DNA of 64,000 nt from the NCBI GenBank assembly GCA_050084515.1, contig CM114271.1, forward strand, positions 32,922,001-32,986,000, in the 5' to 3' direction. Position numbers and translations under genes: made by a program. The notes under the pieces are model-generated. The model worked only from the letters and a program-made list of their open reading frames with translations, was not told where the DNA came from and searched no databases. The DNA comes from Blasia pusilla. Its lineage: Eukaryota. Below are positions 1 through 58,323 of the stretch, one piece after another (within the stretch, counting starts at the first letter, position 1; every line of letters begins with the position of its first letter).

Positions 1-1294
1 TGGATAACGAGACTCAACCGTAATCATTTCACTTCAATCTGCGGAGCCAATTGTATGATCATCATTCAATTCCTACGACCCATAATCGTACAATCGCGGA
101 TAGATGAAAGGCTGGACGTTACACGCTCTAAGGAAGGGATGCAATAAATGTGTGGAACCTTGTATATCGTTATCCCTTGTCATGTCCAACAAATTAGAGT
201 GAAATAGAATGATGATCAACAATAGGTGAACTTAAAATTCCAGATGTTTTCTCATGATAGCTACAAATGTCATCATTTATTGGTGGGTTTATTTGTCATT
301 TGGAGCATTATTCCCATCTTCAAAAATTGTTTATGGAACAAAGCGAAGGCGTGAAGAATTATTTCCATTAAAAAAATTTGTTGATGGACATAGTATGGAT
401 TTGATATTCATATCACTTCCATCATGTTAAGATTTAGAGACAATCCCTGTTTTGTTCATCTAGAGGGATGTAGAACTCACCATTGCTATATTTTATCTTA
501 TTTGCACTCATGTGAAATTAACCTTTGGTATCATGTGCAATCTATGTAATATTTATGATAAAATATATATTTAAAATCAATAAAAGAGTGTATTCAATGT
601 ATCAAAAAATTTATACAAATATGTTAATATCAAGTCCTTTACGTAGTAGTAGTGGTATATATATATATAGAAATTAAATAACATTCCAATACTAAGAGAA
701 TTTTTCCCCGTGGGTTCATATTTGGATCAAAAATATTTGTCAAACATGCACATGTTAATAAATTAGCATTTACTTTAAAATAATCCTATTCATGTTTATA
801 ATAATAATCCAATCCCTCGGAGAATGTTCTTCGAGTGAATTATGAGATTTTTGAGCTTGCCGTGTAATGCATTTGTGTCACTCACTATAGTCCATCCCAC
901 CTTCCAATAAGTCGGTCACTACATCCCTTGAGTCCCCTCATCTAATGAAACATAACTTTTTCGCTCATTAGTCTCATAAACAAATCCAAGATTTGTGAGT
1001 TCGTCACACTTGATTATTTTTCCGAAGTAAATACGATCCCCCGAAGAAGCCATGAGAGAAACGTCTTTAGACTGATCATGGTCTTGTCATAAAACACTTG
1101 AACAACAACCTTGAGATTATTATGCACACTCATCAACAACAATTCTTTTCTTTCTTGTCTTATGGCCCAAAAAGGAATTATCCACTACCTCGATTCTAAT
1201 TGGGTGATTTTTAGAAAACTATAAACAAGAAAATTTGAGATTATTCACTGGCTATGCAGAAGGAATAGTCGTTGTATCTTGGCGAATTGCCCGG

Positions 1295-3113: not shown

Positions 3114-3151
<38 letters not shown>

Positions 3152-3699
3152 ACATGGAGCCGCCCTTCTCCGACTCCGGCAGTAGTCAGAACGGCTCTGT
3201 GCGAGGCAACGGAGCCACATAAACATATGCGGCTCTGTTTGCCTCCGTTCACTTCTTTTTTTAGTATTTTTCCTCTAGGAGGTTGTATTTCACGGGTTTA
3301 GGTTCTACGCACACAACATTTCACACCTAATACACATTTTTTTATTATATTATCACATGTAATGGTGATTAATCTTTTACTGGTTTTGTTTGGAATAATA
3401 CGGATAAATTATATATTCTAGTGGGTGAAAAAGAATGAGATTTTCATTGAGAACCTTTTAGCGATCATTATGGATGTTTTTTGACTTACTTTGTGCATCA
3501 TTTCTTGAAGGAGGAATGTTTAGTGAAATCGAGCTCGTTACTTTTATTATGGGGACTACGGAAGACGACAAAGTTAATTAATATTCAAAATATATTCATG
3601 TTCTATTTCATGATCGAAGAGTGGCATTGAAGTCAATCAAATGGAGGAACAAAAATTTGGGTAATTCCAAAACAATTCACTTGGTGGGAGGTCATTCAT

Positions 3700-4891: not shown

Positions 4892-5094
4892 GGTAGATTA
4901 TACATAATTATTTTTCAGAAGCAAATGTTGTTGATGATTTTCCTTCTCGCTTTTCTCTCTCCAACTGAAGCTCCATGCGGTGAAGTTCGAACATTTGAGA
5001 CATGAGCTCCAATTTGTTATCTTCTTGTTGAGCTTTCTTTTCACTTATCTCATTCAAAACTTGAATGAAGGCATTTATTGATTGTGTAATACTA

Positions 5095-8000
5095 TGTCGT
5101 GCGCATACACATCGCTACACAACATATATCGCTGTCACCGAATACACACACAAACATGCACGATCCCATGCTAACTCATGGCATCCAAACACAGAGGCGA
5201 GGAGTACCAAAATATCTCCAATCAAAGTAAGATCCAATTTCTCTCTACACCATCTCACACCATAACTCTCAAAGGTGTGCACTCTCTCTCATGTCAAACC
5301 AAACCCACTCTCGCGTGGAGACCCTCGAAACCTCCGTCACGTCTTTTAGGATAGATCGGTGAGATCTAGTAGAGCGCCTTCGTAAGTAGTGGAGGACATG
5401 CTCAATAGGTCGAGGATGACCTACTGAGGCTTGAGGAAACCTGAGACGGCAGGTTTCCTCAAGCCTCAGCTCATTTGGAGCCATATTGAATAACTTATTA
5501 TTTTAGGTAAGTATCATTTTGAATATATGATTGACTTTCTATTTTTGGTAAGTGACCCTTGACCTCCTACATCAAGTCAAGAGCCAAGGAGATCACTTGG
5601 GAGAATAGGTTACCATGGAGAGATCTCGAGAGAGTGGAGGGGTATACCTCAAGGAGAGAGAGCTTGACAACTCATTCTCTCTTTGTTGAACCTCTTGGCA
5701 TGAGGCGGCGGAGCTATGATCCCATGCCTTGTGAGTGTAACCCAAGCCTCTCATTAGGAGAGTGGGTTTGGTTTGACACGAGAGAGAGTGCACACCTTTG
5801 AGAGCTATGGTGTGAGATGGTGTAGAGAGAGATTGGATCTTACTTTATTGGAGATATTTTAGTACTTCTGGTCTCGTTGTTTGGATGCCATGAGTTAGCA
5901 TGGGATTGTGCGTATTTGTGTGTGTGTTTGATGACAATAATGTATGTTGTGTAGCAATGTATATGCGCACGACACTTCGTACCACTCCGGGTAAACCCTC
6001 GAGAGCTACTCTCAGGTCCACTATCTCGCCTCTCAAAATCCTGAAAGGACGTCGTGATGGCCCTCGTGCCTCTCTCACACGATCACTCTCAACCTCGCGA
6101 GTTATCCGTCAATCACTCATCCCAAACATGCGACACTCAATCTACACTCTCCCTCCTCGAGACGTGTAACGTGCGGCAACAAGCGGCGTGGTGCGGCAAA
6201 TCGACTAAGCTATCATCTCATCGACAACCTACCCTCAACTCGGGACATCCCACATAGGTCTATGTCCCCTAAACCACATACATAAATGATACTCTCAACA
6301 TCCACACAACCCAATATCCCCAAATAAACTAACCAAATCCCAGAATCTCTCACGCGTGCAGGTTAAAGGACCAGAATAGGTAACCTGACCACATATTGAT
6401 GTTGCTCCTCAGGAACTCCAAATCTCAACCCCAACTCGGTCGTGGAGACAACTCCTCCAATCAGCAAGTCCTCCTCCTCCCGTACTGACGTTGCTAAAAC
6501 TCCTCGATGGATAGTGCGGTTCCAACGGAACAGTGCGGCGTTGCAGGCGGTACAGAACGGCTACAAAGGACATGACCCTCGATGGTGGGATGCGGAACTC
6601 GGCGGCATACCCTCCTCAATCAATAATAAACCCACACTCTGCTCCACAATGACGGTGCGGCTCTGCGATCTAGACGGTGCGGTGTGGCCACAAGCGGCAC
6701 GGCGTGACAATCAGCCGCGCGTTGCGGCTACGGGCATCACGACACGGTACTCGATCGTCGTCGAGCGGCAACCAATCACAACATAGCAGCATGAAATCAG
6801 AACTCAAACACCATAACCGGAGGTCATCTACCATCACTGGTTGATGATGAAACTGCGATGACGGTGATGGCCAAACCAAAGTACGTGGTGGCGATGCAAG
6901 TCAGACAATCCACGGTGGTCGTGGAAGACCCTCCACTTTGTAATGGCGGCAATGGCAACCAAAGGGTGGATAACGGCAACGGCCGACAGTGGACGGTGGA
7001 CCGTTGATGGTGACAACGGATCGTTGACGATGACGATTGACCATCGACGGTGACGGTTGACCATTGACCAATGACGGTGACTATGACGACGACGGTCGCC
7101 GCTGGCGTAGTGGCTGGTTCAGGGTTTGAACAATTTAACCCTAAAAATCATCTAACAATGGAAATTTTGCAAGATTGACCATAACTTTTTACTCGCATCC
7201 AAATTGCGCACCGTTTGTTGTACGACGTGCAAAACTTTACGATCTACGATGGAGTTAAAAAATATTTGGAATTGGACATTCCAGTAAAAACTGATAGGGA
7301 CTGTTGTAAATCCCAATGTCTCTTTCTCCTACACAAAATTTGGCAGCGCTTCCGCGATGATTTCTCCCAACCAAAATGTAAAACCTGTAAAAATACAAAT
7401 CTGCAAGCTACATGGTGCTCCCAAGAGTAATGGCATGGGGCAACCCGCCCCCATAATCAATCCCTATCAAAAATTGGGCAACGTTTTTGCACGCCACTCT
7501 TCTACACAAAAAATAGGCAAATGCAAAGAATAATCAAAGCAGCCCTTGCTCCGATGAGCACTCCCATGAGCCGCTAAACGGAGAACACGGTCCCCAATCT
7601 GCAAAAAAAATAAGTGACCAACGAGCTCCCCCATGATGCTCTCTCATTCTCTCATTCTCTCTTTGTAAAGTAAGATCCAATCTCTCTCTACACCATCTCA
7701 CACCATAGCTCTCAAAGGTGTGCACTCTCTCTCATGTCAAACCAAACCCACTCTCCTAATGAGAGGCTTGGGTTACACTCACAAGGCAAGGGACCATTAG
7801 CTTTTCCACCTCATGCCAAGAGGTTCAACAAAGAGAGAATGAGTTGTCAAGCTCTCTCTCCTTGAGGTATACCCCTCCACTCTCCCGAGCTTTCTCCATG
7901 GTAACATATTCTCCCAAGTCACCTCCTTGGCTCTTGACCTGATGTAGGAGGTCAAGGGCCACTTACCAAAAATAGAAAGTCAATCATATATTCAAAATGA

Positions 8001-8179
8001 TACTTACCTAAAATAATAAGTTATTCAATATGGCTCCAAATGAGCTGAGGCTTGAGGAAACCTGCCGTCTCAGGTTTCCTCAAGCCTCAGTAGGTCATAC
8101 TCGACCTATTGAGCATGTCCTCCACTACTCACGAAGGCGCTCTACTAGATCTCACCGATTTATCCTAAAAAACGTGACA
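5095..8179 (-). mobile_element. Internally deleted, non-coding copy of the DNMT-Gypsy family (A1 - leader - deletion - end of A2 + B2), TSD ACTA
   Basis: On the minus strand it begins TGTCACG (8179) and ends GCGCACGACA (5095). ACTA lies at 5091-5094 and 8180-8183. 7665-7420 matches 44707-44957, and 6800-5975 matches ~48230-49026. Confidence 0.88.
5335..5974 (+). mobile_element. Solo terminal-repeat unit (A+B) nested in opposite orientation inside the 5095-8179 copy
   Basis: (C)GTCACGTCTTTTAGGATAG...ATGCGCACGACA, highly similar to 35148-35817. Flanked by CCTC/CTTC (4-bp TSD, 1 mismatch). The uninterrupted target, with a single GAGG, is visible at ~49024. Confidence 0.88.
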
Positions 8180-8269
8180 ACTATTACTGATATCTCTCAA
8201 CCTTCTTTTTTTGTTTGGTTGTCTTGCAATGCCCGGTTGGGAACATGCTTTGCTTCTTGGATTTTGTTC

Positions 8270-30007: not shown

Positions 30008-32491
30008 ATAGCTAGGTTCTCAAACGCCATAGGCATGACTCTCCAAAAGAGCTCAGCCCGCTAAGAACACACTCGTACCCATACGTCTGGATCGTTGAGG
30101 TCAAGTACCTCAACCACATCTCGTCAAATCGACGCCGGTAACTCTGGCTCTCTCTCATAGAGCAAGAAATATGGTGAAAATTATGCCACGGATACCTGCC
30201 CACTGAAGCGGTAATCCATCGCCAACCACGGCAACTGTAGGTCCCAATCTCCCAAGAGTCCTCTTTGTAGTCAATACTTGCGCAATCCTCTCTTCACCGT
30301 GTGCACAACTCTCTCTTCCAAACCATCTGCCTCCGGATGATCTCGAGAAGTCGTACGATGATCTATCAATGCCTGATCACACAAGGCCTAAAAGTCACCC
30401 CTAAACTCAGTACCATGGTCCGTCAACATCTTTGTTGGTGCGCCGAAGTGACTAAGCACTCTATTAAGAAATGCATAAGCTGCTCCCTCACTCGACCTAT
30501 CTGGCAACGCTACCAACTCAATCCACTTGGAGAAGTGCTCCACCATGACCAACACGTACCGACTATGGCGTCCTGTCAATGGTAAAGGCCCTACAAAGTC
30601 TAAACTTGAGCGATACCCTAACCCCATGATCGGTAAAGGATGCAAGTGTGGTGTCGGAGCATTGAACGATGCCCGCACCCTACCACATACAATGCACCTG
30701 GCTACAAACTATTAAACATCAGTCTGCATACCATGCCACCAATACTGAATCTGAATCAAGCTATACGTACGCTTGACTCCAAAATGCCCTAACGCCTCGT
30801 GAGCATGTCTCACAACTCGTGCTCGCTATGAAGGATGCGGCACCATCCGCACTCGTCCATCTTCCGAAACTCAAAACACATGCGTCCCCTCCCACCTGAA
30901 CCTCCTGGCTCGCTCTAGGACTCAATCCCGCTCTCAAGCATCCACCGTGCTCGCTAAGACACCAGTGCGTAGGTACTCCAAAATCATCTCATCATCGTGG
31001 ATGTCTCTAGTTCCTGTCGACTCCTTACTAGCATCTGGATCTGAGGACTCACCATCCAACCTCCCTCCTAGAGTGGATGCCTCCTGCTGACCTGAAATAG
31101 CCAATAGACATAAATAGGCAGATGGGTGCCAACCCGTCACCATCTCCTCATCACTCTCGCCATGCCACCACGCTCAAGTCGCATCACTCTAGCTCGTGCG
31201 TGGGTTACGGCTCAACCCATCCGCATCCTGGTTCAGATGTCATGGGTGATGGAAAATCTGAAAATCATACTCCTTCAACATGAGTGACCATCTGGCAAGC
31301 TTCCCTATAAGCTTGTCAGACTCCATCAACCATCTGAGTGGCTGATGATCAGTGATGAGCGTGAAAGGGTTTCCGAAAAAATAACATCTAAAATGGGCCA
31401 CTCTCCACACTACAGCTAAGCACTCCCCCTCATAAGAACTGTACTTTGCCTCCGTAGCGTTGTTCGAGCAGCTCGCATATGCCACTACAAACTCCTTCCC
31501 CTCATCATCTCTCTAAGTGAGCACCGCTCCTAATCCCAACATACTCTACTCCGTATGTAACTACAGAGACAACCACATATAGGTATCCTCAAAATTGGTG
31601 AGGATGTCAACCTATCCTTGAGCTCTACAAATCCTTGCTCTTGATCATCTCCCCAAAATCACCCTTGGTCCAACCTAGTCAGCAAAGTCAATGCCTTCGC
31701 AATTGCACTAAAGCCCTTCACATACCATCGGTAGTAGTTTGCCAATCCCATGAAAGCTCAAACTTGACTCACATTTGTAGGGCGGGGAATGCACGCTTTG
31801 GCCTCCACCTTTGTCTTCTGAACTCCAAAGCCCCCTAGATAAATGGTGTGTCCAAGATACTCGATCTGGTCATGGAAGAACCTGCACTTGCCTGGATGTA
31901 ACTTCAGCCCATGTAAAAACAATCGTCGAAACACCTCCTCCAGATGTCTCTCAAACTCCTCAACCGTGGCACTGAAGATGATAATGTCATCAATGTAACA
32001 TCTTGCATAATCCAAAACAGCCAAAATCCTATCCATAACTTGTTGAAAACCCGCAGAGATGTTCTTCAACCCAAATGGTAAGAACCGCCACTAGTACAAA
32101 CAATCCCTCCCAAAAGGATCTATCCCCTAAAATATTGTCTTCTCCCTATCCTCCACTCGGATGGGCAACTGATGATAGCCAGCATGGAGATCCAAACAAT
32201 TGAAGATCCTTGCATGCCCCACCGCATCAAAGATCTCCTTGAGAGTAGGCATAGCATAGAAATCAGCCTTCGTATGCCGATTGATTGGACTATAATCCCC
32301 ACACATCCGCCCATCGGTCCACTGGTCATGCATGTCCTTCTTCGCCGACATAACTGTGGCAGATGCATACTCTCCAAGCAATCTCTCCACCAGTCCAACA
32401 TCAGCCAAGTCTCAAATCCGACTCTGAATCACGGCTTGCTCCATGTTGGAATACCTGTAGAGTCGTCGGAAGATAGGAGTATCACTATCCA
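30008..32491 (-). mobile_element. Degenerate RT-RNase H-integrase fragment of the same Gypsy family
   Basis: YASATVMSAKKD, LDLHAGYHQLPI, CYIDDIIIFS, YSSYEGECLAVVW, SLDFVGPLP, LTDHGTEF; colinear with ~52980-55470; many stops. Confidence 0.93.
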
Positions 32492-35147: not shown

Positions 35148-35817
35148 TGTCACGTCTCTTAGGATAGATCAGTGAGATCTAGTAGAGCGCCTTTGTGAGT
35201 AGCGGAGAACATGCTTATTAGGTCAAGGATGACCTGTTGAGGCCCCGGGAAACTTGAGAGAGCAGGTTTTCCCTTCGTTTCGGCTTATTTGGAGTCATAT
35301 TGAGGAACTTACTATTTTAGGTAATTACCAGTGTGAGTATATGATTGACTTTCTATTTTTGGCAAGCGATCCTCGACCTCCTACATCAGGTCAAGAGCCA
35401 AGGAGGTGACTTGGGAGAATAGGCTATCATTGAGAGAGTTTGGGAGAGGGGAGATGTATACCTCAAGGAGAGAGAGAGTTTGAGAGCTCATTCTCTCTTT
35501 GTTGAACCTCTTGGTATGAGGTGGCGGAGTTATGATCCCTTGCCTTGTGAGTGTAACCCAAGCCTCTCATTAGGAGAGTGGGTTTGGTTTGACATGAGAG
35601 AGAGTGCACACCTTTGAGAGCTATGGTGTGAGATGGTGTAGAGAGAGATTGGATCTTACTTTAATTGGAGATATTTTGGTACTTATTGTCTCGTTGTTTG
35701 GATGCCATGAGTTAGCATGGGATCGTGATGCCATAAGTTAGCATGGGATCGTGCATGTTTGTGTGTGTGTTCAGTGACACAGATGTATGTTGTGTCTCAA
35801 TGTGTATGCACACGACA
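35148..35817 (+). mobile_element. Solo terminal-repeat unit (A+B, 670 bp) with perfect 4-bp TSD TCTT
   Basis: TGTCACG...GCACACGACA, with TCTT at 35144-35147 and 35818-35821. Homologous to 5335-5974 and 56229-56864. Confidence 0.92.
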
Positions 35818-43310: not shown

Positions 43311-43392
43311 AGATGTAGGGTACCTTAATATAGATGCATGGCCACCCTTGACCACCAAATATTTCAAGGTTTTAGGGGTCCTTCTAGTAATT

Positions 43393-43855
43393 CCGTCATC
43401 CAACTCCGTCTAGAATCGGCCATAAGCGCCTACATAGTGTAGCTCGCTGGCTACACCATGTAGCCAATGAGCTACACGGTGCTCCCGAGAGCACCCGCAT
43501 GGGGCAATCCGCCCCCATACTCAATCTTTATAAAAAATTGGGCAGCACTTCCGCATGCCACTCTTCCACACAAAAAATCGGCAACCGCAAAGCACAACCA
43601 AAGCCGCCCTTGCTCCGGTGAGCACTCCCATGAGCCGTTGAATGGGGAATACTGTCCCCAACCTGCAACAACAGCGAGTGAACAACAAGCTCCTCCATTG
43701 AAACTCTCTTACTCTCTCATTTCCTCTTTGTAAATCGCTCAAATCTCACACTATGTCTCACACCAAGCTCTCCATGGTGTGCACTCTCTCTCTCATGTCA
43801 AACCAAACCCACTCTCCTAATGAGAGGCTTGGGTTACACACACAAGGCAAGGAGG
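43393..43855 (-). mobile_element. Fragment of a third copy of the Gypsy 5' end (3' part of A plus start of leader)
   Basis: Reverse complement matches ~44660-45071, plus A sequence seen at 56610-56670. Confidence 0.9.
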
Positions 43856-44029
43856 AACATACGTTTTCCATATGCAATCTTGACGTCGGTAGACTAGATG
43901 GAGAGAAAAGAAAACAAGAAGTGCTTGTAAGGGCCGTAACAAGTAATTTTGACATATTAAATTATATTTTCTTTAAGTGCAGAGTTGCAGATTTGATTAG
44001 TATGGAAGTGGGTTTACATCAAAGTGCAT

Positions 44030-44433
44030 TCCCTTCATGGAGTCCCACTAAGTTTGTCCTCCCATTGCTGCCCGAACTTCCTATCTCTACTGTCATGTCT
44101 TTTAGGATAGATCGGCGAGATCTAGTATAGCGCCTTCGGAGATACTCGAGGATAGCCTCAAGAGGTTGAGGATGACCAGCTGAGGCAACGGGTAACCTAC
44201 GAGAGCAGGTTTTCCCTTTGTTTCGGCTCCAAATCCCTTCATGGAGTCCCACTAAGTTTGTCCTCCCATTGTTGCCCGAACTTCCTATCTCTACTGTCAT
44301 GTCTTTTAGGATAGATCGGCAAGATCTAGTAGAGCGCCTTCGGAGATACTCGAGGATAGCCTCAAGAGGTTGAGGATGACCTGCTGAGGCAACGAGTAAC
44401 CTACGAGAGCAGGTTTTCCCTTTGTTTCGGCTC
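44030..44433. repeat. 200-bp tandem duplication spanning the element's 5' junction
   Basis: 44030-44229 and 44234-44433 are nearly identical, separated by CAAA. Each contains flank, CTAC and the first ~139 bp of segment A. Confidence 0.93.
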
Positions 44434-44586
44434 ATTTGGAGCCATATTGAGGAACTTACTATTTCGGGTAAGTTACTCTTTGTGGTATAGTTTTCTTTCC
44501 ACTTTTGGAAGTTTCCTTTGACCCGCTATAGTAGATCAAGAGCCAAGGAGGTGACCTACGAGCATAGGTTATCGTGGAGAGGGCTT

Positions 44587-44668
<82 letters not shown>

Positions 44669-45633
44669 ACACCATGGAGAGCTTGGTGTGAGATTTGAGC
44701 GATTTACAAAGAGGGAATGAGAGAGTGAGAGAGTTTCAATGGAGGAGCTCGCTGGTCACTCACTGTTGTTGCAGGTTGAGGACCCTATTCCCCGTTCAGC
44801 GACTCATGGGAGTGCTAATCGGAGCAAGGGAGGCTTTGGTTGTGCTTTGCGGTTGCCGATTTTTTGTGTGGAAGAGTGGCGCGCGGGAGCGCTGCCCAAT
44901 TTTTGATAAGGTTTAAGTATGGGGGCGCGTTGCCCCATGCAGGTGCTCTCGGGAGCACTGGCATGTGTAGCTACGTGCCTACACTGTGTAGCTTGTTGGC
45001 TACATGGTGTCACCAACGAGCTACACAGTGTAGGCGCGTATGGCCGGTTCTAGACGGAGTTGGATGACGGAAAGGACATGGCTGGGTAGTCACGGCGATA
45101 ACATGTAGCATCATCAATAGCCGCGGATGGCAAAGCATAGTCTGGCCGTGAAGTGCAGCCGCAGAAGACTGGCCATGGAGTCAGGCGCGTGGCTCGCCGG
45201 TGACAAGCAAGGTTACCAACATCTCGCGGCAAGATGAGCGACAGGCTGAGTCCGGCGGCTCAAATTGGGATTGACAACATGACTCCCTTCCCCACATTTG
45301 AAGGGCCAAGGCAAGGCGGTCAGACTTTCTCTAAATTTGGAACCCCCCCACCAAATTATCTTTTGTTTTTAACTATAATGATCCCCGGAAAAACTATATC
45401 TACTCTCATAAAATATCCCACTTAGCCCACCAATAGTGGGTCAACTCCTCTAAATCTTTTTTTTCACTCAACTTCTATTCACAAGCAAATTTATTATTGT
45501 CCTATCCACTCAACATAGAAGGTCTTACTTTTCTAACCCTCAATTGAAAATTTACCAAGTATTTTTGAAGTTTGATCCTTCCCAAGCGATGGCTATGGCA
45601 ACCTACCAAAAAAATGTCGTAACTTTGTGCTCA

Positions 45634-47580
45634 CACAATGAAATTGTGCACCGTTTCTTCCACAACGTGCACACCTTCCCGATCTAGGACAAATTCAAAT
45701 TGATTTCTTCATTCAACCTTCCAACAAAAACTAATAGGGACTGTTATGCAACCCAACGTCTCTTCTCCTACGCAAAATTTGGCAGCGCTTGGGCGAGAGT
45801 AGGGAGGCCCAGTGTGGTCGTGAAGTGCGGTTCCGGCTTGCTACGGAGTAGTTCCAACCGAACAATTTTGGTTTTTGTAACGTGGTAGGCGGCTGCCAAT
45901 TTGGAGCCCTAGCAATGCGCCGACAGCAAGAGGTGGAGCGGGGCAACACCGAGCCATGCACAATGAAATTGTGCACCGTTTCTTCCACAACGTGCACACC
46001 TTCCCGATCTAGGACAAATTCAAATTGATTTCTTCATTCAACCTTCCAACAAAAACTAATAGGGACTGTCATGCAACCCAACGTCTCTTCTCCTACGCAA
46101 AATTTGGCAGCGCTTGGGCGAGAGTAGGGAGGCCCAGTGTGGTCGTGAAGTGCGGTTCCGGCTTGCTACGGAGTAGTTCCAACCGAACAATTTTGGTTTT
46201 TGTAACGTGGTAGGCGGCTGCCAATTTGGAGCCCTAGCAATGCGTTGACAGCAAGAGGTGGAGCGGGGCAACACCGAGCCGTGCACAATGAAATTGTGCA
46301 CCGTTTCTTCCACAACGTGCACACCTTCCCGATCTAGGACAAATTCAAATTGATTTCTTCATTCAACCTTCCAACAAAAACTAATAGGGACTGTCATGCA
46401 ACCCAACGTCTCTTCTCCTACGCAAAATTTGGCAGCGCTTGGGCGAGAGTAGGGAGGCCCAGTGTGGCCGTGAAGTGCGGTTCCGGCTTGCTACGGAGTA
46501 GTTCCAACCGAACAATTTTGGTTTTTGTAACGTGGTAGGCGGCTGCCAATTTGGAGCCCTAGCAATGCGTTGACAGCAAGAGGTGGAGCGGGGCAACCCG
46601 AGCCGTGCACAATGAAATTGTGCACCGTTTCTTCCACAACGTGCACACCTTCGATCTAGGACAAATTCAAATTGATTTCTTCATTCAACCTTCCAACAAA
46701 AACTAATAGGTGTCATGCAACCCAACGTCTCTTCTCCTACGCAAAATTTGGCAGCGCTTGGCGAGTAGGGAGGCCGGTGTGGCCGTGAAGTGCGGTTCCG
46801 GCTTGCTACGGAGTAGTTCCAACCGAACAATTTTGGTTTTTGTAACGTGGTAGGCGGCTGCCAATTTGGAGCCCTAGCAATGCGTTGACAGCAAGAGGTG
46901 GAGCGGGGGCAACACCGAGCCGTGCACAATGAAATTGTGCACCGTTTCTTCCACAGCGTGCACACCTTCCCGATCTAGGACAAATTCAAATTGATTTCTT
47001 CATTCAACCTTCCAACAAAAACTAATAGGGACTGTCATGCAACCCAACGTCTCTTCTCCTACGCAAAATTTGGCAGCGCTTGGGCGAGAGTAGGGAGGCC
47101 CAGTGTGGCCGTGAAGTGCGGTTCCGGCTTGCTACGGAGTAGTTCCAACCGAAAATTTTTGGTTTTTGTAACGTGGTAGGCGGCTGCCAATTTGGAGCCC
47201 TAGCAATGCGTTGACAGCAAGAGGTGGAGCGGGGGCAACACCGAGCCGTGCACAATGAAATTGTGCACCGTTTCTTCCACAGCGTGCACACCTTCCCGAT
47301 CTAGGACAAATTCAAATTGATTTCTTCATTCAACCTTCCAACAAAAACTAATAGGGACTGTCATGCAACCCAACGTCTCTTCTCCTACGCAAAATTTGGC
47401 AGCGCTTGGGCGAGAGTAGGGAGGCCCAATGTGGCCGTGAAGTGCGGTTCCGGCTTGCTACGGAGTAGTTCCAACCGAACAATTTTGGTTTTTGTAACGT
47501 GGTATGCGGCTGCCAATTTGGAGCCCTAGCAATGCGCCGACAGCAAGAGGTGGAGCGGGGCAACACCGAGCCGTGCACAA
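45634..47580. repeat. Tandem array of six ~325-bp units inside the retrotransposon leader
   Basis: Unit starts (CACAATGAAATTGTGCACCG) at 45634, 45959, 46284, 46608, 46925 and 47251; very few differences between units. Confidence 0.97.
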
Positions 47581-49159
47581 CGGCCTCCACCACGACCCTC
47601 AATTGGTGCCCATGTGGCTTCCCATGAGTGCGATCAACGCGGCTATAACAAGGCTAACAAGCGGCCTTTGATGGCGGAAGGCGGGCAGGCATAGTCGGTT
47701 CGTGAAGTGCGGCCAAGGCATTGGTGGCTGTGTTTATAGGTTTGAAGTTTTTGTTGGGAGAAATCAACCCAAGAATTCCGCTGGCGCCTTACTCTAAGGT
47801 GCTCCAACTCCGTAACCCCGGCCTGACATTGCTCTACTGGCCTTGTCGCGGTCTCCGGTTTGCTTGCCGTGCTAAGCTATTCCTGACCCTGTTGTGAACT
47901 CCACGCAGCTGCTGCCGTGTGTTGCTATGGTGCAACTGCCTACTTCATCCGCAGGCTACTGACTACTGCGTCTGGTCATTCTAGCCGGCGCAGTTAGTGA
48001 TTGTGGCCATGGCCGCCTGACATTAGCTGTTGGCTCCATCCAGATGCCGTTGCCTTCGTCAAATGAAGTTCTTGCACAGTAAAAAATAGGACGATGGGCC
48101 CTACGGACAACTGATTTTGCAATTTTTGGCTGCTGATGAGAGGTTGTAACTGCTCGTCACCGATCGACCGAGGATTGGCCGCTCAGCGATGACATGTGAA
48201 CTTTTTTGAGTGATGGGGTCGCCATTTCTTTTATGCCTTGCTATGTCTTGAGATTGGTAGCTGCTCGACGACGTTCGAGTACCGTGCCGTGACACCTGTA
48301 GCAACAACGCGCCGCTGATTGCCGTGCCGTGCCGCTTGTGGCTGCACCGCATCATCTCGATCGTGAAGCCGCACCATCATTGGAGCAGAGTGTGTTTTGA
48401 TTTTAAGGAGGGTATACGGCATCCTATTCTCGAGTGCCGTGCTGTTCCGTTCCACCAGTGCCGCACCATGCCGTTGGACCCGCACCGCACATTGAGAAGA
48501 TTTGAGCATCGTCATTATCACAGGAGTGCGACTTGATGCTTGGAGGAGTTTGTCTTCACGACCAAGTTGGGGTTGAAATTTGTAGTTGCTGAGGAGCGAC
48601 ATCGATACTTGTTCAGGTTACCCATTTTGGTCTTTTGCCCTGCACGTGTTAGGGAATTCCGGGTATTGGGCAATTATTTGGGGATATTGGGTTTCGTGCA
48701 GATGCTGAGAGCATCGTTGATGTATGGGTTTAGGGGACATAGACGTGTGTGGGATGTCCATATTTGAGGGTATGTTTTGTCGATGAGAGGGTAGATCAGT
48801 CGATTTTCCGCACCACGCTGCTTGTTGCAGCACAACAAACGTCTCAGTGAGAGTGTGTAGATTGAGTGCCGCCTGTTTAGTTTGAGTGATTGAGTGATTA
48901 CTCGCAAGATTGAGAGTGATCGTGTGAGAGAGGCACAAGGGTCATTACGGGGTCCTTTCAGGACTTTGAGAGGCGAGGTGGTGGGCCTGAGGGTAGCTCT
49001 AGAGGATTTACACGGAGTGGCGTGAGGTTTCAAGCATCTCCACTTGAGGGGCCGTCTCGACCTCCTTCTGTGTCATCTTTAAACCAGGAGGAGAGTGCAG
49101 AGGAGTTTGTTAGTGCATTACCGCACATATTGAGTGGTCCTACCAGTTGGGCGTACAAG

Positions 49160-51200
49160 ATGGACGAGCGGGGTAGAGGACCACATAGGTTTCCGGGTGC
49201 TATAGGCACAATAGAGTTGCACGACTTTATTGCAGAGTTTTGGAGTTGATGTGAGTCACAACGGGAAAGGAACTCCAGAGAGTTCAACCCGTTTACAACA
49301 TGGAATAGAATATTTCAACATTTAGAGGGGGCACCCATGGACGATTACCATGAGTTCTCCCACCGATACGACCAGGAGATTGAGGCATGGAGACTCTACT
49401 ATGATCCACATTATGTGTCATGGACTGATCCGTTTCCAAATGAGGAGGAGGAGTCGGGAGAGGCTACTTCTTCTTCCACCAGTGATGTTGTAGGAGGGGT
49501 AACTTGCACTGGAGCAGTTGCACCATCTAGTCAGGTTCATCCCAGGTTTAACCCCATGGTTGAGTTCTTTGTTGAGTTGCGGACGAGCTACCAAGGGGTA
49601 TAGACGGAGAAGTTGCGGAGTATCCACGACTTCTAGAGGCGTCGGGTGAGAGTTTGCATGAGGCCTACACTCGTTTGCGCCGGTTGATTAGCATCACTCA
49701 GGGGGTGACAAAGTCCCAGACTATCCAGTCATGGTACGTGATGCTGGACCAAAACTTGCGGACACAGATGAGGGATGGGGTGCTTCTTATGAACACCTCC
49801 CCTACATTGAGAGATGTTTTTATGACCACCAAGAACATTGAGCACAACATGGCGGAGGAGAGCGTAGCCACCATGGGTTATGCGCGAAAGCAGTCACGAT
49901 TGCTTATACCACCAGTGCAGCAACGTGCATTTTGAGAGAGGTCTGTGGCACCACGAGTTCAGAGAGGATATCGGGAGGCCGTGCCACAAACACCTGCGCC
50001 TTCATATGCGGCTAAGAAATAGCCGCCAGCGATTATTTGTTCAGCATGTGGTGGAGCCCATCACCAACGCGATTGCACTCGTCAGGGGCATGGACGTGTG
50101 CCTCGGCATGGAGGAGGAGATGGTGCTGCACTAGGAGTTTATCAGTGTGACTATTTTTAGAGGTATGGTCACACACGCGCCAGGTGATTTAGCCTTCATC
50201 CTAAGTTACGTCCACACCGAGGGCCACAGAGGGCACCAGAGCGAGTTTTCGGTCCGGGTGGGCCTAGAGATCGTGCACCAGGTGGTCCCGTTGGGGGACA
50301 AGGAGTTGGAGTTTCCCGAGGGGGTGGTGGAGTTTCCCATGCAAGAGGTACAGTTCCACCACCTAGATGTGTCCAAGGAGACGTCAAGCGTGAGACTGGG
50401 ATGGCTCCTTAGATACAGCATCAACAGATTGTTGCTATGGCATTGAGGTTCCCCGATGCCGGAGCCAAAGCCGGGGCACTGACGTCTTATGGAGCAACTG
50501 GAGATATGGAGGATCCTAGCTAGATGTGCGCAATTGTTGAGTTGGAGGCAGTTGATGTTGTTACATGTGGAGCCGCCGTAGAGTGGGATCCATAGAGAGG
50601 GGAAGCATCACGTTCAGAGGTGATTGCAAAGGAGGTGATGGACCTGCCCTTGGAGCCAATGCTCGGGCCGCCCACCTCAGATTCATGGCAAGTTGCAGAT
50701 GCTAGGATGGCGGAGATGCCCGCTAGACCCACGATAGAGCGTGCCATGGTTGCTCCACGTGTTGTGTTGATGGATAACCGGGGAAAGATCTTCCAATTGG
50801 TGAGTCCAGGAGGTAGATTTTTTTTCTGCAGCGTGTCTTGTTAGATTCAAGAGCGCAACCCCTGATGTTGTGGAAGGCGGAATTTATAGGTTTGGGCTTG
50901 ACAAGGGCCGATGTGGAGCATTTTTCATTCCGGATACAAACATCCTTGGATGGAGCGAGTACCACACAATTTATCACTTGACATGAGGTTGTGGTGAGGA
51001 TTCGCCCATGACATCCTACCGATGAGTCCGTGGTGCAAGCCAAGGCGATAGTGACCGATGCCGAGTCCTACAACGTCTTGGTTGATGGAGCAGTGTTGTA
51101 CCCGATGGGGTTTTCCCTAAACAAGGAGTCAGCGTCTTACAAACCACGATGGTAGTCCGATGATGGGCACCTTAGCTCATTACCTGTTCGATTCACGGGT
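49160..51200 (+). pseudogene. gag: gag (two zinc knuckles) and aspartic protease, disrupted
   Basis: MDERGRGPHRFPG..ELHDFIAEF; ESLHEAYTRLRRLI; CSACGGAHHQRDC (~50038); CDYF*RYGHTRAR (~50146); protease VLLDSRAQ (~50835; decayed D-S-G) and YNVLVDG. Confidence 0.8.
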
Positions 51201-51539
51201 GGAGTGATCGAGCGACGACCAAGAGAGATGGCGACATTAGCCGTGTTCAAAAGCGCCATCACGTGGCCTTGTGATTTGATTGAGGGGCATGCCCATGCAG
51301 AGGACACTCCCGCGCCTGACACTTCTAGGGAGAGTAATGTTATGGTAGCAAGATCAATCTGTGGAGGAGAGGTGTTGTTGTGGAGCTCGAGTGAGGAGCT
51401 TCGACGCTTGGTCGATGAGCATGTATAGATGGCGTGGAGTCAGGTGTTTGCATCAGAGCGTGATGGGTCACAAAAACCCAAGGTAGCCAAGAGTGCTACT
51501 ATGACCCCTTTGGACACCACCTCAATTGTGTGGTGCATC

Positions 51540-52500
51540 CCAGAGGAGGGTATTCGCGTGTTGGATCTCTTTGGAGGGATCATAACAGGCTTAGCTGATG
51601 TTTTGCAGGCAGGAGTGTGCGTGCAGTAGTATTGTACGTTGAGATTGATGATGATGCGAGGCGCGCTTCACTTCGCCATGTGGCACAATTTTTCCTCTGA
51701 TGTCCCGAATTTTTTTCTGTGTCCGCCGTCTAGGGGTTCCAAAGTTCCCTACCGAGGGACATTTCATTGTTGGGGGCGCAGGACTTGGAGTGGGTAGGGA
51801 CCATAGATTTGGTCATTGCTGGTTGGCCGTGTCAGGACGAGTCAAGTGTTGGAGAAGGTAGCGGGTTGGGTGACACTCGATCCGGGTTATTTTGGGAAAT
51901 GATACGGATCTTGCGACACTTGCAAGAACATCAATCTCGTTCTCCAGCATCCATTCTAGAGAATATACCAATTTTGGGCGATTTGAGGTCTCGCGTAGTG
52001 ACGAGTGCACATCAGGTGCATGCATGGATTGGCTGTGTAGTATTGTTGGATGCGGCGAGTGTAGATTCATGAGCATATCGCCCGCCTCTTTGGTGGACCC
52101 AACTTGGTGCTACATGACTTGTTGCGGAGGGATTATGCAAGAGTGGAGAGCTCCTCTGATTTGTTGGTGGATTCTATTGTGGATCCAGGTCGTCCATCAC
52201 AGGCAATGAGGCACGATGATCGACCGCCATTGACTGTGATCAACAGGATTGGCATGCTTGGGGCAGCCTTTCCCACATTGGTGAGTTTTCCCGCCCCCTA
52301 TGCATTCAAGGAGGGTGGGCCTGGCTTAGTTTGGGATGATGAGGTACAGCGGTTGATGGAGCCCAACGCCGATGAGCGAGAGCAAGCGATGGGATTCCCC
52401 ACAAGAGTGACGGAAATATCATCACTATTAGAGGCATCAAAATGCCATGTCTTGGGTTAGGCAATAGACCTGAACTGTTTGATATGGATGTTCAACTTAG
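51540..52500 (+). pseudogene. C5 cytosine DNA methyltransferase domain within the pol polyprotein (frameshifts and stops)
   Basis: Motifs in canonical order: I IRVLDLFGGI (51552), II YVEIDDDAR, III PRDI, IV IDLVIAGWPCQD (catalytic PC at 51827-51832), V GLGDTRSGLFWEMIRIL, VI ILENIP, VIII LDAASVDS*AYR..LWWTN, IX EPNADEREQAMGFP, X HVLG*AIDLN. Confidence 0.92.
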
Positions 52501-52919
52501 GAGTAGTTGATCATCGTCGTTTGAGGTTGCGACAGATTACACTTGTTGCGTTGGTGAGCCCCATGCCTACTGAGATGGTTCAAGTATTGGCTGGGGGCGA
52601 GACCCAAGGAAATCGACACACCAAGTGTGATCGGGAGAGACACCCTTAGACTTCTTGGGTTGTTTTGCATGTACATTGAGAGATGATAGCCACAACATCG
52701 AGCGTGATTCCTGGTACTGTACGTGGAGGAGATCACAGTTTGCAGTTGGCTACAAGGGAGCAGACGAGTTCTATTGTCCGAGAGGAGGTTCCATCACAAC
52801 AACCATTGACATCCGTGCCGGAGAGTCCTAACATAGACATGATGGAGACTTGGGAGCCAGATATGGGTCCTAAGTAGATAGGAGGAGAGCGGCGCCAGAT
52901 ACACTAGTTCCTTAGGAGT

Positions 52920-55680
52920 TATAGGAGTTGTTTTTCATTTTGCATGCATGATTTGGGTACACTAAAGGGTACATGGATCCGCATTAAGTTGTCGAGCGAC
53001 ACGCCAATCTTCTTACAACCCTACAGGTATAGTGATATGGAGAGGGCTCTGATTCAGAGTAGAAGCCAAGACTTGGTTGGAGTAGGATTAGTGGAGATGT
53101 CGCATGGAGAGTATGCATCTCCCACTGTCATGCCCGCCAAGAAGGATGTGCATGGCAACTGGATGGATAGGCGGATGTGGGAGATTACCAACCTATCAAT
53201 CGGTAGACAAAGTCCGATAGGTATGCCATGCCCACCCATGAGGAGATCTTTGATGCTATTGGGCAAACAAAGATCTTCAGTTCGTTAGATCTTCGAGCCG
53301 GATACTATCAATTGCCTATCAGATTGGAGGATAGGCAAAAGACAACATTTTGGGGCATCGATCCTCACGGGAAAGATTTCTTGTACTAGTGGCACTTCTT
53401 ACCATTTGGGTTAAAGAATACCACGGCTGAGTTTCAGAGGGTCATGGATAGGATCTTGGAAGGTCTAGATTTTGCTAGGTGTTACATTGATGACATCGTA
53501 GTCTTTAGCGCCACGGTTGAGGAGCATGAGCGACATCTTGAGGAGGTGTTTCCACAATTGCACTAACATGGGCAGAAATTATATCTAGGCAAGTGCAAGT
53601 TCTTCTACAACCCGATTGAGTATCTGGGTCATACAATATACCTACGGGGCCTTGGTATGCAGCAGACAAAGGGAGAGGCTATTTCACGCATTCCACGCCC
53701 TACAGATGGGAGTCAAGTTCTTGCATTCATGAGACTGGCGAACTTCTATTGATGGTATGTCAAGGGTTTCAGTTCAATTGCGAAGCCACTAACCTTGCTG
53801 ATCAAGGTGGATCATGAGTGGCATTGGGGGGATAAGCAGGAGAGAACATTTCAGCAACTTAAGGACAGATTGACGCCCCTATCCATATTGAGGAGATCGA
53901 TTAGGGGGCGTCCTTTCCAATTGCGTACACATTGGAGCATGTTGGGGCTTGGAGCGGTGCTTACCTAGCATGATGATGAGGGTAAAGAGAACTTTGTGGC
54001 TTACACTAGTCGCTCGAACAACATTGTAGAGTCGAAGTATAGCTCGTATGAGGGTGAGTGCTTGGCCGTAGTGTGGGCTGTCGCGCATTTCAAGTGTTAT
54101 TTATTTGGAAACCCCTTTACCATCATTATTGATGATCAGCCACTTAAGTGGGTGATGGAGTCCCACAAGCTTACATGGAAGCTTGGGAGGTGGGCTCTTT
54201 TGTTGCAAGAGTATAATTTCCACGCGGTACATAGACCTGGGACGCTCAACCAAGATGTAGATGGTTTGAGCAGTAACCCATGCGCGAGTCAGGGAGATGC
54301 GACTGAAGTTTGTTGGCATGGAGAGAGTGATGAGGAATTGGTGCCAGGATGGCAGACGTCAGTCTATTTGGGGTTGTTGGCTATGGAGAGCCGGATTGCT
54401 GAGACTTTGATGGTGAGGTCTGATGGAGAGTCCTTAGATCTAGAGGCCGGTGAGGAGACGACATGTGGCCAAGTCATTCACGACGATGGAGTTGTCTTGG
54501 AGTACCTGTGTATTGGCAAAGTCGTAGGCACAATGGGTGCTAGAGAGCAGGATCAGATCTTATAGTGATCCAAACGGTTCCGGTGGGAGGGGACACATGT
54601 GTTGCAAGTTTTGGAGGATGGTAGAGTACGTGTAGTGCCTCATCCTTCACAGAGAGCACCTTTGGTGCGTCACGCCCACAAGGAGTTGGATCATTTTGGA
54701 GTGAAGCCGACGTACAACTTGCTCCAAATACAGTATTGGTGGCGAGGCATGCAGATTGATGTTCAACATTTTGTTTCCAGATGCATCGTGTGTGATATGG
54801 TCCGAGCATCGTTCAATGCTCCGACTCCACCGTTGCATCCAATTCCGATCATGGGTTTAGGTTATAGACGAAGTTTGGATTTTGCAGTACCTTTACCTTT
54901 GACGGAGCGCCATAGTCGTTATGTGTTGTTGATGGTCGATCACTTCTTGAAGTGGATAGAGTTGGTTGCATTGCCTGACAAAGCAAGCAAGTGAGTAGCG
55001 TATGCCTTCCTAGATCGAGTGCTGAGTCATTACGGCGCACCAACTGAGGTGTTGATAGACAAGGGTTGAGAGTTTTGCGGGGAGTTTCAGGCCTTGTGTG
55101 ATCAGACACTGATCGACCACCGCACCACTTCGGGAGATCATCTTGAGGTGGATGGACTAGCGGAGAGGGTTGTGCAGACGGTGAAGAGAGGATTACCCAA
55201 GTATGGCTTGTAGAGAGGTTACATAGGAGATTGGGACCTCCAGTTTCCGTGGTTGGCGATGGGATACAGATTCAATAGGCAAGCATCCTTAACGTCTTTC
55301 TCACCGTACTTGCTCCTTTATGGTCGAGAGCCAGATTTACCTAAGGCCATTTATCGAGATGTTGGTTAGGTGTTGAACCTTGAAGACCCTGATGTATGGA
55401 TGCGAGCATATTCTTAGAGGGATGAATTGTTTCGGAGAGTGATGCCCATGGCGTTTGAGAGCTTGGCAATTGCGCAACATTGGGATACGTTGAGGTATGC
55501 GACTATTCGGGGAGGTGGTTATCGACCGACTATCTGGATGTTTCAACAGGGAGACTATGTCCACTTACAACAGACGGCACCCACGATGTTGGATGTGACC
55601 GCAGGGTGCACGGTACCATCTTGAGAGTGCGTGAATTTTTCTATCTGGTGTTCTCTTATTGGAGGGACGCGATGGTATGG
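52920..55680 (+). pseudogene. pol: Reverse transcriptase, RNase H and DDE integrase, disrupted
   Basis: YASPTVMPAKKD, LDLRAGYYQ, LPFGLKN, YIDD (53483), YLGH, YSSYEGECLAVVWAV, HAHKELDHFG..CIVC (HHCC), SLDFA, IDKG*EF, GLAERVV; RT-RH-INT order indicates Ty3/Gypsy. Confidence 0.95.
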
Positions 55681-55778
55681 TTTGGAAGGACCATGTGCGT
55701 AATTGTGCGCCATATCACCTTCCTAACATTGGCGGTACAATTGATCCAAGCTTAGCAGTAGTTCCTATAGGCTTGCCA

Positions 55779-55919
55779 TGTATGTTGCGTGGTTTTGCCC
55801 ATGGTGCAACCACTATGCTCGTATGTAATGGATGTTCGAGAGGATGGCATATGGCATGTTTGACGCTACCTCTCATTAGGGTTCCTCAGGGATGATGGAT
55901 GTGTCCCAGATGTACATAG
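55779..55919 (+). pseudogene. PHD finger at the integrase C-terminus
   Basis: CMLR....TMLVCNGCSRGWHMACLTLPLIRVPQG*WMCPRCT* fits the C4HC3 pattern, with the second Cys mutated (CGT) and one in-frame stop. Confidence 0.88.
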
Positions 55920-56664
55920 AGTAGGTAGTTATAGATTCCGACTTATGTCTGTGACATGAATGACAAGAAGGCGACTAACGATGGGGCCATATGAGCATCC
56001 GACCTGTTTGCTTTTAGCGTCCGAGAGATATATGTCATGGTAGGTAAGGATAGATGGCTATCTGGAGTTAGAGGGACCTAACCACCAACTAGGGGGAAAT
56101 TGGAGATACTTTGGTACTTCTTGTCTCGTTTTTTGAATTCCATGAGTTAGTATGGGATTATGTGTGTTTGTGTGTATGTTCGGTGATTGCGATGTATGTT
56201 GTATAGCGATGTGTATGCGCACGATAACTGTCACATATTTTAGGATAGATCAACGAGATCTAGTAGAGTGCCTTCAAAGATACTGGAGGAGAGCCTCAAG
56301 AGGTTGAGAAAGACCTGCTAAGGCCACGGGTAACGTGCAAGAGCTGGTTTTTCCTTCGTTTCGGCTCATTTGGAGCCACATTGAGGAACTTACTATTTTG
56401 GGTAAGTTATAGTGTATGGTATAGTTGAATTTCCACTTTGGGAAGTGGCCCTTAACCCGCTACACCAAGTCAAGAGCTAGGAGGTGACGTGTGAGCATAG
56501 GTTATCGTGGAGAGGGATTGGGAGAGGGAAGGGTGTTTACCTCCAAGAGAGAGCTTAAGAGCTCATTCTTTTTGTTGAACCTCTTGGCATGAGGCGACGG
56601 AGCTATGGTCTTCCTTGCTTTGTGTGTGTAACCCAAGCCTCTCATTAGGAGAGTGGGTTTGGTT

Positions 56665-56729
<65 letters not shown>

Positions 56730-58323
56730 TGTGCATACCATGTAGAGCTTGGTGTGAAACATTATGTGAGATTTGAGCGATTTAATGGGATTATGTGTGT
56801 TGTGTGTTTGTGTGTATGTTGTGACAACGACGTATGTTGTGTAGCAATGTGTATGCGCACGATACTACTAGAGTCTGCAAATTTTTTTCCAATGTCCTTT
56901 TCTCATAGCAATATGAATGATTTCCAACAATTTTCCAGCACCAAAAATTTTATTCCATACATGAACTCTTAGAGCTCAAAATAAATTGGAATAGTGAAAA
57001 CATCATGTAACACGAGGCTATAATTTACCACTTTGCAAAAGTCTACATTTGCATTCATGAAACCACTTTTGATATGGAATTAAAGTACATGTGGCTCTCG
57101 CAATTATGGTAGTCATTGGCTAAGTTTTGAAGGCTTATAGTTTTGATTCTTCTCAAAATTTTAAGATTTTTATAATGACTCATTTTCCTTTTAATTCAAA
57201 TTTCCTCATTTTACAGATTTCCATAGGAAATATTTGAAATTTCTTGCTCTGAAAACAATGTGGGCACCAGCCGGCCTTATATACACACACTCTCCAAGAA
57301 AGACCCGTCAACTTCTTCTACCTAAAAGTCCTAGATGAGAATTGAGCTACTCTTAATTAGCGATCGTTAATCAAGAACAAAATTAGATTGTCTTTTTGCC
57401 CATCTTCGATCTAAAATTCCTAGATGAGAATTGAGCTACTCTTTATTTAGGAGCAAAGTTAGATTGTGTCTTAACGTCCATTAATACCAAGCTAAGCAAC
57501 ACCAAACTTGCAACTAGTGGACATGTATTTCTTTACCCGTCCCATGGTGGACACATTTTCCTATTGTTTCTATATCTTACAGAATTAAACATGCAAATTG
57601 TTGTACAGTTCTCATGCGTCTTTATGAAATGCTAAAATTAGCTTACTCCAATGGTTACTCTCGGGCTTACTTGGTAACCTTTAGGTCACGTCATTGCTCA
57701 TCGTGATTTGGGGGATACTTAATCGATGAGAAATCACTTTTCTCACATCCATCTTGCTTAGCGATTTTGAATCATTTTTATCTTGTTCGTACTTTTCAGA
57801 GTTATTTCAAGGAAACATACTTTTGTGAGCCATAAAACTAGGTTTGTGGAGTAATTCCTTTGGTTGTCTTCCATGGAGCTCAACAATTGTGGCCGGTATG
57901 CAATACAAGTGGCAATTAAACTTGACTTCACTCTTTGAAATAACAAACGTTTAAATTCATCCTCATATATACTTCATACCATTATAATGAAATAGAACAT
58001 CCATTCACCTCAACCTCCCCTCCACAGACAAGGGGAGAGATGAGCCTCCAAGAAAACCTTTGGAAGAGCGTTGTTTGGTTTTGGAGGTTTCTAGGTTTCA
58101 CGAAATGAACTTCACTTCTTTAGAGCTAGGATTATAACTTGCCAATGAGTGTAGGTGGGACATGAACTGGAGGAAGCACAATGTCAACATTTCCTATGCT
58201 GGCTTCCTGCATCTGTTTGCAATAGTTTGGCATTCGCAACCAATGAAGAATTCAACCCTCCAATGGAATGGGAGGAAGTTGAAGGGTGTGCGCATGGAAG
58301 GTCAAGCTATCTTGGAAGGATCC

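Follow-up and report, generated by a model that had tools for sequence, protein, structure and literature searches.

Split direct repeats on an integrase-bearing, methyltransferase-carrying Gypsy-type retrotransposon family from Blasia pusilla

In the Ngaro and PAT retroelements (PMC4157794, PMC7192593) split direct repeats take the form A1...B1-A2-B2, the enzymes being encoded upstream of the internal pair; such repeats have so far been treated as a hallmark of elements that use a tyrosine recombinase. DIRS-type repeats together with Gypsy domains and a DNA methyltransferase have already been published for Klebsormidium nitens by de Mendoza et al. (2018, PMC5890265), where the Fig. 4c legend labels KnitGypsy-Dnmt3 "DIRS-like repeats, Gypsy domains"; the term "streptophytes (Gypsy-DNMT3)" appears in a 2026 preprint, with repeats unmentioned in the passage concerned. 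Two further properties are known from other retroelements. Tf1 primes itself, its primer site being complementary to the 5' region of its own RNA (PMC7175516), and a prediction of self-priming exists for Tcn1, a plant clade found in mosses and club-mosses (PMC6317226). Integrase also cleaves the palindromic junctions of circles with two long terminal repeats (LTRs) (foamy virus, HIV-1 in vitro; PMC1905944, PMC1180852). Here we analyse an element at positions 44295-56864 of a 64,000-nucleotide stretch of Blasia pusilla DNA (contig CM114271.1; the whole stretch is called the window). The A-genes-B-A-B layout of this element, which has a DDE integrase, is shared across its family and is no local accident. 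We also propose that the genomic form of the family is probably a circular permutation of the DNA predicted by its own replication signals, as a model with joined ends of the complementary DNA (cDNA) would produce.

The element is read on the forward strand in the order A1, leader, genes, purine tract, B1, AC, A2 and a short B2, just as the initial annotation had described it. Its left target-site duplication (TSD), CTAC, occupies 44291-44294, and the identical four nucleotides stand at 56865-56868. A1 (44295-44706) begins TGTCATG and terminates ..GATTTA; at 44706/44707 it joins CAAAGAGGGAATG with no B between. The leader starts with the putative primer-binding site (PBS; 44707-44721, CAAAGAGGGAATGAG), the reverse complement, with one mismatch, of a 15-mer of intact A copies, and the self-primer region of A1 itself has been lost through expansion of (GA)n. 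At the other end, the polypurine tract (PPT; 56088-56098, TAGGGGGAAA) closes with ..CTAGGGGGAAA, its last base being 56098, and is followed by B1 (56099-56226), whose terminal letters are ..GCGCACGATA (the end is also read as ..CGCACGATA). A 2-nt spacer, AC (56227-56228), leads from the B end to the A start and forms the internal attachment-site (att) junction. A2 (56229-56785) has a decayed self-primer site near 56560-56575, and B2 (56786-56864), which lacks the first ~55 nt of B, ends ..CGATA before the right-hand CTAC. The copy is old: its open reading frames (ORFs) are broken, (GA)n is expanded in A, and A1 and A2 are only 83-85% alike, with an indel of ~140 nt.

The coding domains identify the family as a Ty3/gypsy-type retrotransposon with the order gag, protease (PR), C5 cytosine DNA methyltransferase (DNMT), reverse transcriptase (RT), RNase H, DDE integrase and PHD finger. 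On the forward strand of the window we identified a DNMT domain broken by frame changes (51525-52520; PF00145, E 1.4e-11, and tblastn with the DNMT region of the relative L052), the RT-associated RNase H (53753-54562; PF17917, E 1.4e-23; PF17919), the integrase zinc-binding domain with the beginning of the DDE core (54569-54991; PF17921, E 1.1e-14) and, at the C-terminal end of Pol, a PHD finger (55635-55892) with a Pfam E value of 5e-05, just under the cut-off. L052 is a near-intact member of a set of 80 loci obtained by scanning metagenome contigs with an RNase H alignment, of which 42 align to the repeats of locus L079. It has two long ORFs (976-8229 of 9317 nt), with one in-frame stop between Gag-PR-DNMT and RT-RNase H-integrase-PHD, and Pfam gives the order Asp_protease_2, DNA_methylase, RVT_1, RT_RNaseH, Integrase_H2C2, rve and PHD. 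The rve core thus scored in this relative, the PHD finger has an E value of 2.6e-10, and the DNA methylase (3676-5082; PF00145, E 1.8e-13) is placed between protease and RT in Pol. Its DNMT region was matched by tblastn in 45 of the 80 related loci and in the window. No tyrosine recombinase, whether Phage_integrase or other, was found in the two long ORFs of L052, in its antisense ORFs or in 18 ORFs of the window, and Pfam finds no chromodomain at the Pol C-terminus in the window or L052; a PHD finger stands there instead. The closest named proteins are from liverworts (Calypogeia fissa and Marchantia polymorpha). Several of the Marchantia matches are annotated as "hypothetical proteins", and MARPO_0091s0058 has the fullest set of domains (PF00145, RVT_1, RNase H).

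Of the usual characters of Ty3/gypsy elements, the family shows a DDE integrase, the order PR-RT-RNase H-integrase within Pol, and a short TSD at TG..CA ends (TGTCAYG ... CACGACA); the same LTR at both ends is absent, the 5' end having A only and the 3' end B-NN-A-B, where NN is the 2-nt spacer. Two characters of the Gypsy-DNMT3 kind are present, namely a C5 DNMT inside a Gypsy Pol (window and L052) and the A-coding-B-A-B repeat layout (window and relatives). The family matches the Gypsy-DNMT3 kind, in a liverwort-like host, when set beside the K. nitens elements by their description.

The other copies in the window have the same ends. Three of the seven A ends run into the leader (44706 on the plus strand, 43731 and 7666 on the minus strand), each as ...TTTA followed by CAAAGAG without B, so that all three cases listed in the initial annotation hold. 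The remaining four run into B (5847, 35663, 5225 on the minus strand, and 56785 with its shortened B). Four of the five B ends are followed by unrelated flank, and the fifth, B1, by AC-A2. Besides the full copy with CTAC/CTAC, three elements have TSDs: a solo A-B at 35148-35817 (+; TCTT/TCTT; self-primer 15-mer at 35487-35501), a solo A-B at 5335-5974 (+), which starts CGTC and has CCTC/CTTC (15-mer at 5671-5685), and a deletion derivative on the minus strand, 8179 to 5095 (TAGT/TAGT, or ACTA on the plus strand), inside which the solo copy at 5335-5974 is nested. In the derivative, A1, PBS and leader are followed by ~2 kb of the internal region, after which only the final 88 nt of A2 remain before B2. 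In all four elements the duplications lie exactly outside the TGTC.. start and the ..GACA/GATA end, as had been claimed, and three of the four pairs are perfect (chance 1/256 each). A further fragment with an A end and leader (43391-43861, minus strand) lies head to head with the full copy.

Sequencing reads show that these junctions belong to the family as a whole. We used one same-species whole-genome run (~1% of the run), one contig set and two RNA runs, at a likeness of at least 80, over the stretch 47601-57100; 44000-47600, which holds a 1.9-kb tandem array, was left out. DNA depth, both directions summed, was ~1200-3400 over 48552-56793, less than 30 before 48234 and ~120 in the last bin (56794-57100), and 0.9% of the letters read in the whole-genome run fall on this stretch. 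At the purine tract, 1205 reads clipped after 56096 go on as GCGA followed by TTGGAGATATTTTGG, which is the B start, and 1943 reads clipped after 56224 go on into heterogeneous sequence (agreement 0.38), which is the flank past a B end. A joint from the tract directly to A (56098 to 56229) is not among the 15 joints listed, which go down to 9 reads, a further 139 falling outside that list. Two contig joints, 56757 to 56098 and 56759 to 56100, run from the A end back into a full B. The RNA of both runs is sense (first mate on the minus strand) and spans the element; through B1 into the 5' part of A2 its depth is 105-177, then 53-69, and ~3 in the last bin. The family is very abundant and transcribed. 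Among the joints listed, one from 52963 to 54034, which skips 1070 nt, is confined to the RNA runs, with 12 reads in one and 23 in the other, and is absent from the DNA run. As the skipped part is bounded by AA..TC it is not a standard intron, and the joint may come from an expressed deleted copy.

The related loci carry the same layout. Duplicates were counted once (L019=L047, L025=L027, L039=L043, L061=L064 and L024=L068), and the loci so counted are called distinct. In all 29 readable rows the purine tract is followed by B, and in none of the 29 by A. Among 26 readable ends after B1, the sequence goes on as NN-A2 in 15 distinct loci (one with a small deletion across the junction), as flank in nine, and is truncated within B in two. 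Where A runs into the leader, the sequence upstream is unrelated in 12 of 12 rows and is B in 0 of 12; where A is followed by B and the end is readable, flank comes next in 13 of 13. In the L079 family the spacer at 14 distinct junctions is GC (7), AC (5), TC (1) or AT (1), the 15th junction being the deleted one; elsewhere it is AC (window), GT (L052) and GC (L053). The order tract-B-NN-A(-B) extends to the distant lineages L052, L053, L062/L063, L065/L066 and L075/L076. Seven relatives have both ends, of which five have perfect TSDs (L011 ATTA, L039 AAGG, L042 TGTG, L070 TTCA and L079 CATA) and two match at three of four positions (L032, L036). These duplications flank both forms, A-genes-B-NN-A-B and A-genes-B, and bring the 4-bp pairs of window and relatives to eight perfect and three near-perfect. 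The initial annotation had cautioned that B1 was seen in only one copy; the reads that pass from tract to B and the 15 distinct loci lift this caveat. Segment order, TSDs and the B1/A2 spacer, once tabulated, show a layout kept among the metagenome relatives and not the local rearrangement that had been named as the alternative.

The sequence next to A suggests how synthesis could be primed. No TGG-type primer site follows A1, in agreement with the initial annotation, and there are no tRNA genes within the window. In the window family, CTCATTCTCTCTTTG, a 15-mer of intact A copies (at 5671, 35487 and, on the minus strand, 7843), has its exact reverse complement in the opening 15 nt of the leader. 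A search of the window for CTCATTCTCTCTTTG gave seven matches within two mismatches, against 0.29 expected, and none of 100 shuffles reached seven. In the deletion derivative the self-primer (7843-7829) and the primer site (7665-7651) are complementary at 15 of 15 positions. The L079 family has another pair at the same place: GTTCTTTGAG in A pairs over 10 nt with CTCAAAGAAC directly after A, and in the subfamily L061/L064 these are replaced by GTTCTTCGAA/TTCGAAGAAC, a double compensatory change. In L042 the changed pair persists with its primer site decayed; L037 and L020, which lack a 5' end for comparison, have the changed site in A2 only. L052 combines a TATAAT box and a 16-nt primer/PBS pair with the order PPT-B-GT-A. 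A TATA-like box (GGTATACC, GGTATAAAG, GTATAATG) precedes the site in A by 28-32 nt in the window family, the L079 family and L052, the placement that self-priming of the Tf1 type demands; the PBS adjoins A in all three window copies and in all 12 rows from relatives. Together these features point to tRNA-independent, Tf1-like self-priming of the family.

Two relatives have rearranged ends. L014 has A2 followed by exactly the reverse complement of A 182..1 (L014 3699-3881); its break coincides with the primer/PBS pair, and an inverted TGTCATG, the att sequence, closes the copy. In L016 (3830-4078) an inverted purine tract and B are joined to the last 14 nt of A and replace most of A1. Each of the two ends at an inverted att, and both look like snap-back products of reverse transcription, L014 being a case that appears to mark the primer pair as a real synthesis site.

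Purine tract and primer site bracket a unit B-NN-A, and the integrated copy is not flanked by that unit. Because the tract abuts B, and the PBS abuts A and pairs inside A, reverse transcription should duplicate B-NN-A. In this unit U3 should be B, NN and the 5' part of A, and R-U5 the remainder of A. The initial annotation had suggested a tRNA-independent route with non-canonical strand transfer. The first part gains from the self-complementary primer sites (15/15, 10 and 16 nt); the second does not, since the strand-transfer signals look canonical, with tract and PBS around one LTR-like unit and no position-specific lineages of A. Lineages specific to A1 or A2 (or to B1 or B2) were looked for among the relatives and none were found, and in L036 and L056 the locus's own A1 and A2 are each other's nearest neighbours, L039 coming close to this. 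This absence of position-specific A lineages fits both A copies being remade from one template.

Two features of the genomic form are odd for an LTR element: its integrated ends lie inside the unit, and it keeps A2|B2, the joint of the unit's end to its start. An inverted repeat is formed by TGTCAYG, at the start of A, and CACGACA, at the end of B, which internally face each other across two bases. The integrated ends, with their 4-bp duplications, fall at this inverted repeat (..CACGACA NN TGTCAYG...), which is conserved even where the rest of A and B can no longer be aligned between lineages. The A2|B2 joint, TTTTCA|GTTGTGG, is the sum of an A end (TTTTCA|CTCAAAGAAC) and a B start (GGGGGGCGA|GTTGTGG). 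It is precise in 11 of ~13 distinct loci, L002 having extra bases and L022 a 19-nt insert. Within the window it reads TTTA|TTGG, TTTA|ATTGG and TT|GATTGG in three copies (0-2 nt differences), and one copy lacks 55 nt there. G to A changes recur at the first G of A2, where three of 17 rows (L036, L037 and L079) have TATC for TGTC, and at the first G of B2, where five copies have AATTG for AGTTG; because both sites lie in CHG contexts created by the junctions, methylation-driven hotspots are suggested.

The joined-end model would account for both odd features as follows. The RNA would start at the self-primer in A1 and end at a site in A2, and ordinary strong-stop transfers would give a cDNA flanked on either side by B-NN-A. 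Its ends would then be joined, either as in a 2-LTR-circle-type joint or by end-to-end template jumping. Integrase would open the palindromic att next to the leader, which would yield A-PBS-genes-PPT-B-NN-A-B and a 4-bp duplication. Copies of the form A-genes-B, which end at B1, could arise if both sites were cut, from a one-unit circle, or by later recombination between B1 and B2, and solo A-B copies by recombination between A1 and A2. Only the form A...B-NN-A-B would retain the 3' R and hence be able to replicate. In a wider version, which we put forward tentatively and hold to be possible rather than probable, an integrase-bearing, DNMT-carrying Gypsy clade of bryophyte-like hosts joins its cDNA ends, cuts a palindromic att inside U3 and leaves a permuted provirus. 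If true, the DIRS/Ngaro strategy would have its integrase counterpart here, and the clade may be a living model or relative of the step from LTR elements to split-repeat elements with a recombinase.

Several points weigh against joined ends. We infer the step from cDNA to the integrated form, as well as the joining and cutting of the ends, from sequence. A circle with two identical internal sites should yield the other permutation, A-B-NN-A-PBS-genes-B, as well; none of 12 5' ends and none of 13 terminal B rows show it, and the model therefore has to assume a preference for the leader-side site. The A2|B2 joint, in most loci exact, could simply pass from copy to copy in an RNA whose end lies in B2. 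All copies examined are old (A1 and A2 are 83-94.5% alike), and later recombination may therefore have reshaped the ratios of the forms. The depth of A in the reads is not twice the internal depth, though the repeats diverge faster than pol, and the 5' junction of the family lies outside the stretch covered by reads. Finally, L052 1-9317 reads leader-genes-PPT-B-GT-A-PBS-leader, with a GC-rich motif common to both ends; its B-NN-A-PBS may reflect a genuine circular or tandem form, or else an assembly path that ran through identical repeats.

The main rival, which we regard as unlikely but the strongest of those considered, is end repair in the style of Ngaro and PAT, without a joined-end intermediate. 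The RNA would run from inside A1 to inside B2, so that A2|B2 is simply inherited; the 5' part of A1 and the 3' part of B2 would be restored by template switches onto B1-NN-A2; and a linear A...B DNA would then be integrated at its true ends by the DDE integrase. The layout itself is the published definition of PAT/Ngaro (PMC4157794), the A2|B2 joint is near-invariant, the RNA covers B1 and A2, and the missing permutation A-B-NN-A-PBS needs no extra assumption, so that the chief difficulty of joined ends is avoided. The positions of purine tract and primer site fit it badly: a tract abutting B and a PBS abutting A yield B-NN-A at both ends, not A...B. No stop signal for synthesis was found at the A start or the B end, and RNA depth is ~3 in 56794-57100, though reads from B2 may sit on B1. 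The small differences at the joint (window, L002 and L022) also fit a remade joint better than an inherited one.

Two other explanations survive far less well. Canonical A-B LTRs might have lost the 5' B, or a solo A-B might have inserted behind B1; the single B1-A2 junction in the window, the age of the copy, and a 204-bp duplication, tandem array and inverted fragment nearby would suit such a local history, which becomes very improbable when the same junctions appear in reads, in 15 distinct loci and in three further lineages with a constant position of the 2-nt spacer, and when the primer site abuts A in every window copy and relative row that shows it (3/3, 12/12). Nested insertion of A2-B2 was considered separately and rejected: the four nucleotides around A2-B2 are mismatched, and the outer TSD brackets the A1 start and the B2 end. 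Equally hard to credit is a true tyrosine-recombinase element of Ngaro/DIRS type, or a chimera of one with Gypsy, for although the A1-B1-A2-B2 layout and a methyltransferase in Pol recall DIRS/PAT (PMC4157794), the methyltransferase is a C5 DNMT (PF00145), no recombinase family appears in the L052 long or antisense ORFs or the 18 window ORFs, Integrase_H2C2 and rve are present, and 4-bp TSDs (eight perfect and three near-perfect pairs) flank the copies.

The window also holds features that concern this copy or its surroundings. The leader contains a 325-bp tandem array of ~6 units (45615-47580, plus strand) that are 97-99% alike; it is copy- or subfamily-specific, because read depth is below 30 directly after it and above 1200 further on. 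A 204-bp tandem duplication (44030-44233 and 44234-44437, 97.5% alike) crosses the 5' boundary of the element. It holds 61 nt of flank and the first 139 nt of A1, and since both lie inside the duplicated unit it post-dates the insertion. A related pol fragment at 30018-32486 on the minus strand is 74% alike over 2.5 kb, and neither repeats nor a 3' end were found around it.

A family with split direct repeats, a DDE integrase and TSDs, as the initial annotation had recognised it in setting a Ngaro-like layout on an integrase element, bears on the origin of DIRS/Ngaro-type layouts, and its sequence offers concrete, testable predictions in the self-primer, the repeat unit B-NN-A, the palindromic att inside it and the U5|U3 joint that genomic copies retain. 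As the family is transcribed and makes up ~0.9% of the letters read, the joined-end idea is directly testable. The clade, which is this abundant in the same-species whole-genome run and common in contigs of other hosts, will be mis-called or split by LTR finders that expect two identical repeats and a tRNA primer site. In the literature searched, as far as the sources extend, no other integrase element with a split-direct-repeat layout was evident; KnitGypsy appeared only in the 2018 paper, with no report of the clade in bryophytes, and the self-primer, the permuted repeat unit, the internal att and the mix of two integrated forms were not found. What is new here is the self-primer complementarity, the B-NN-A unit, the inverted-repeat site inside it, and A2|B2 as the unit's end-to-start joint.

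Compared with known systems, the family is closest to KnitGypsy-Dnmt3, with which it shares, by description, the C5 DNMT within a Gypsy Pol and DIRS-like repeats; TSDs, a primer site, an att site and a replication model are absent from the text of PMC5890265. By composition the present host is not Klebsormidium. The DNMT-carrying Gypsy kind is hereby extended from a charophyte to liverwort-like land plants. With Ngaro and PAT the likeness is in the split repeats. These groups are defined by a tyrosine recombinase, whereas the present family has a DDE integrase, 4-bp TSDs and TG..CA inverted-repeat ends, and it is not Ngaro/PAT because it has no recombinase. Tf1 and the sushi elements, including Tcn1, share the primer site complementary to the 5' region of their own RNA (predicted here), but they have ordinary LTRs and a chromodomain where this clade has a PHD finger and a DNMT. 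Finally, the retroviral 2-LTR circle resembles the unit B-NN-A in its palindromic junction (CA..TG), open to an internal cut by integrase. In retroviruses that junction is a by-product of unintegrated DNA; in this family its counterpart is a palindrome built permanently into the interior of the repeat unit, and the integrated copy keeps the other joint, that between the U5 end and the U3 start.

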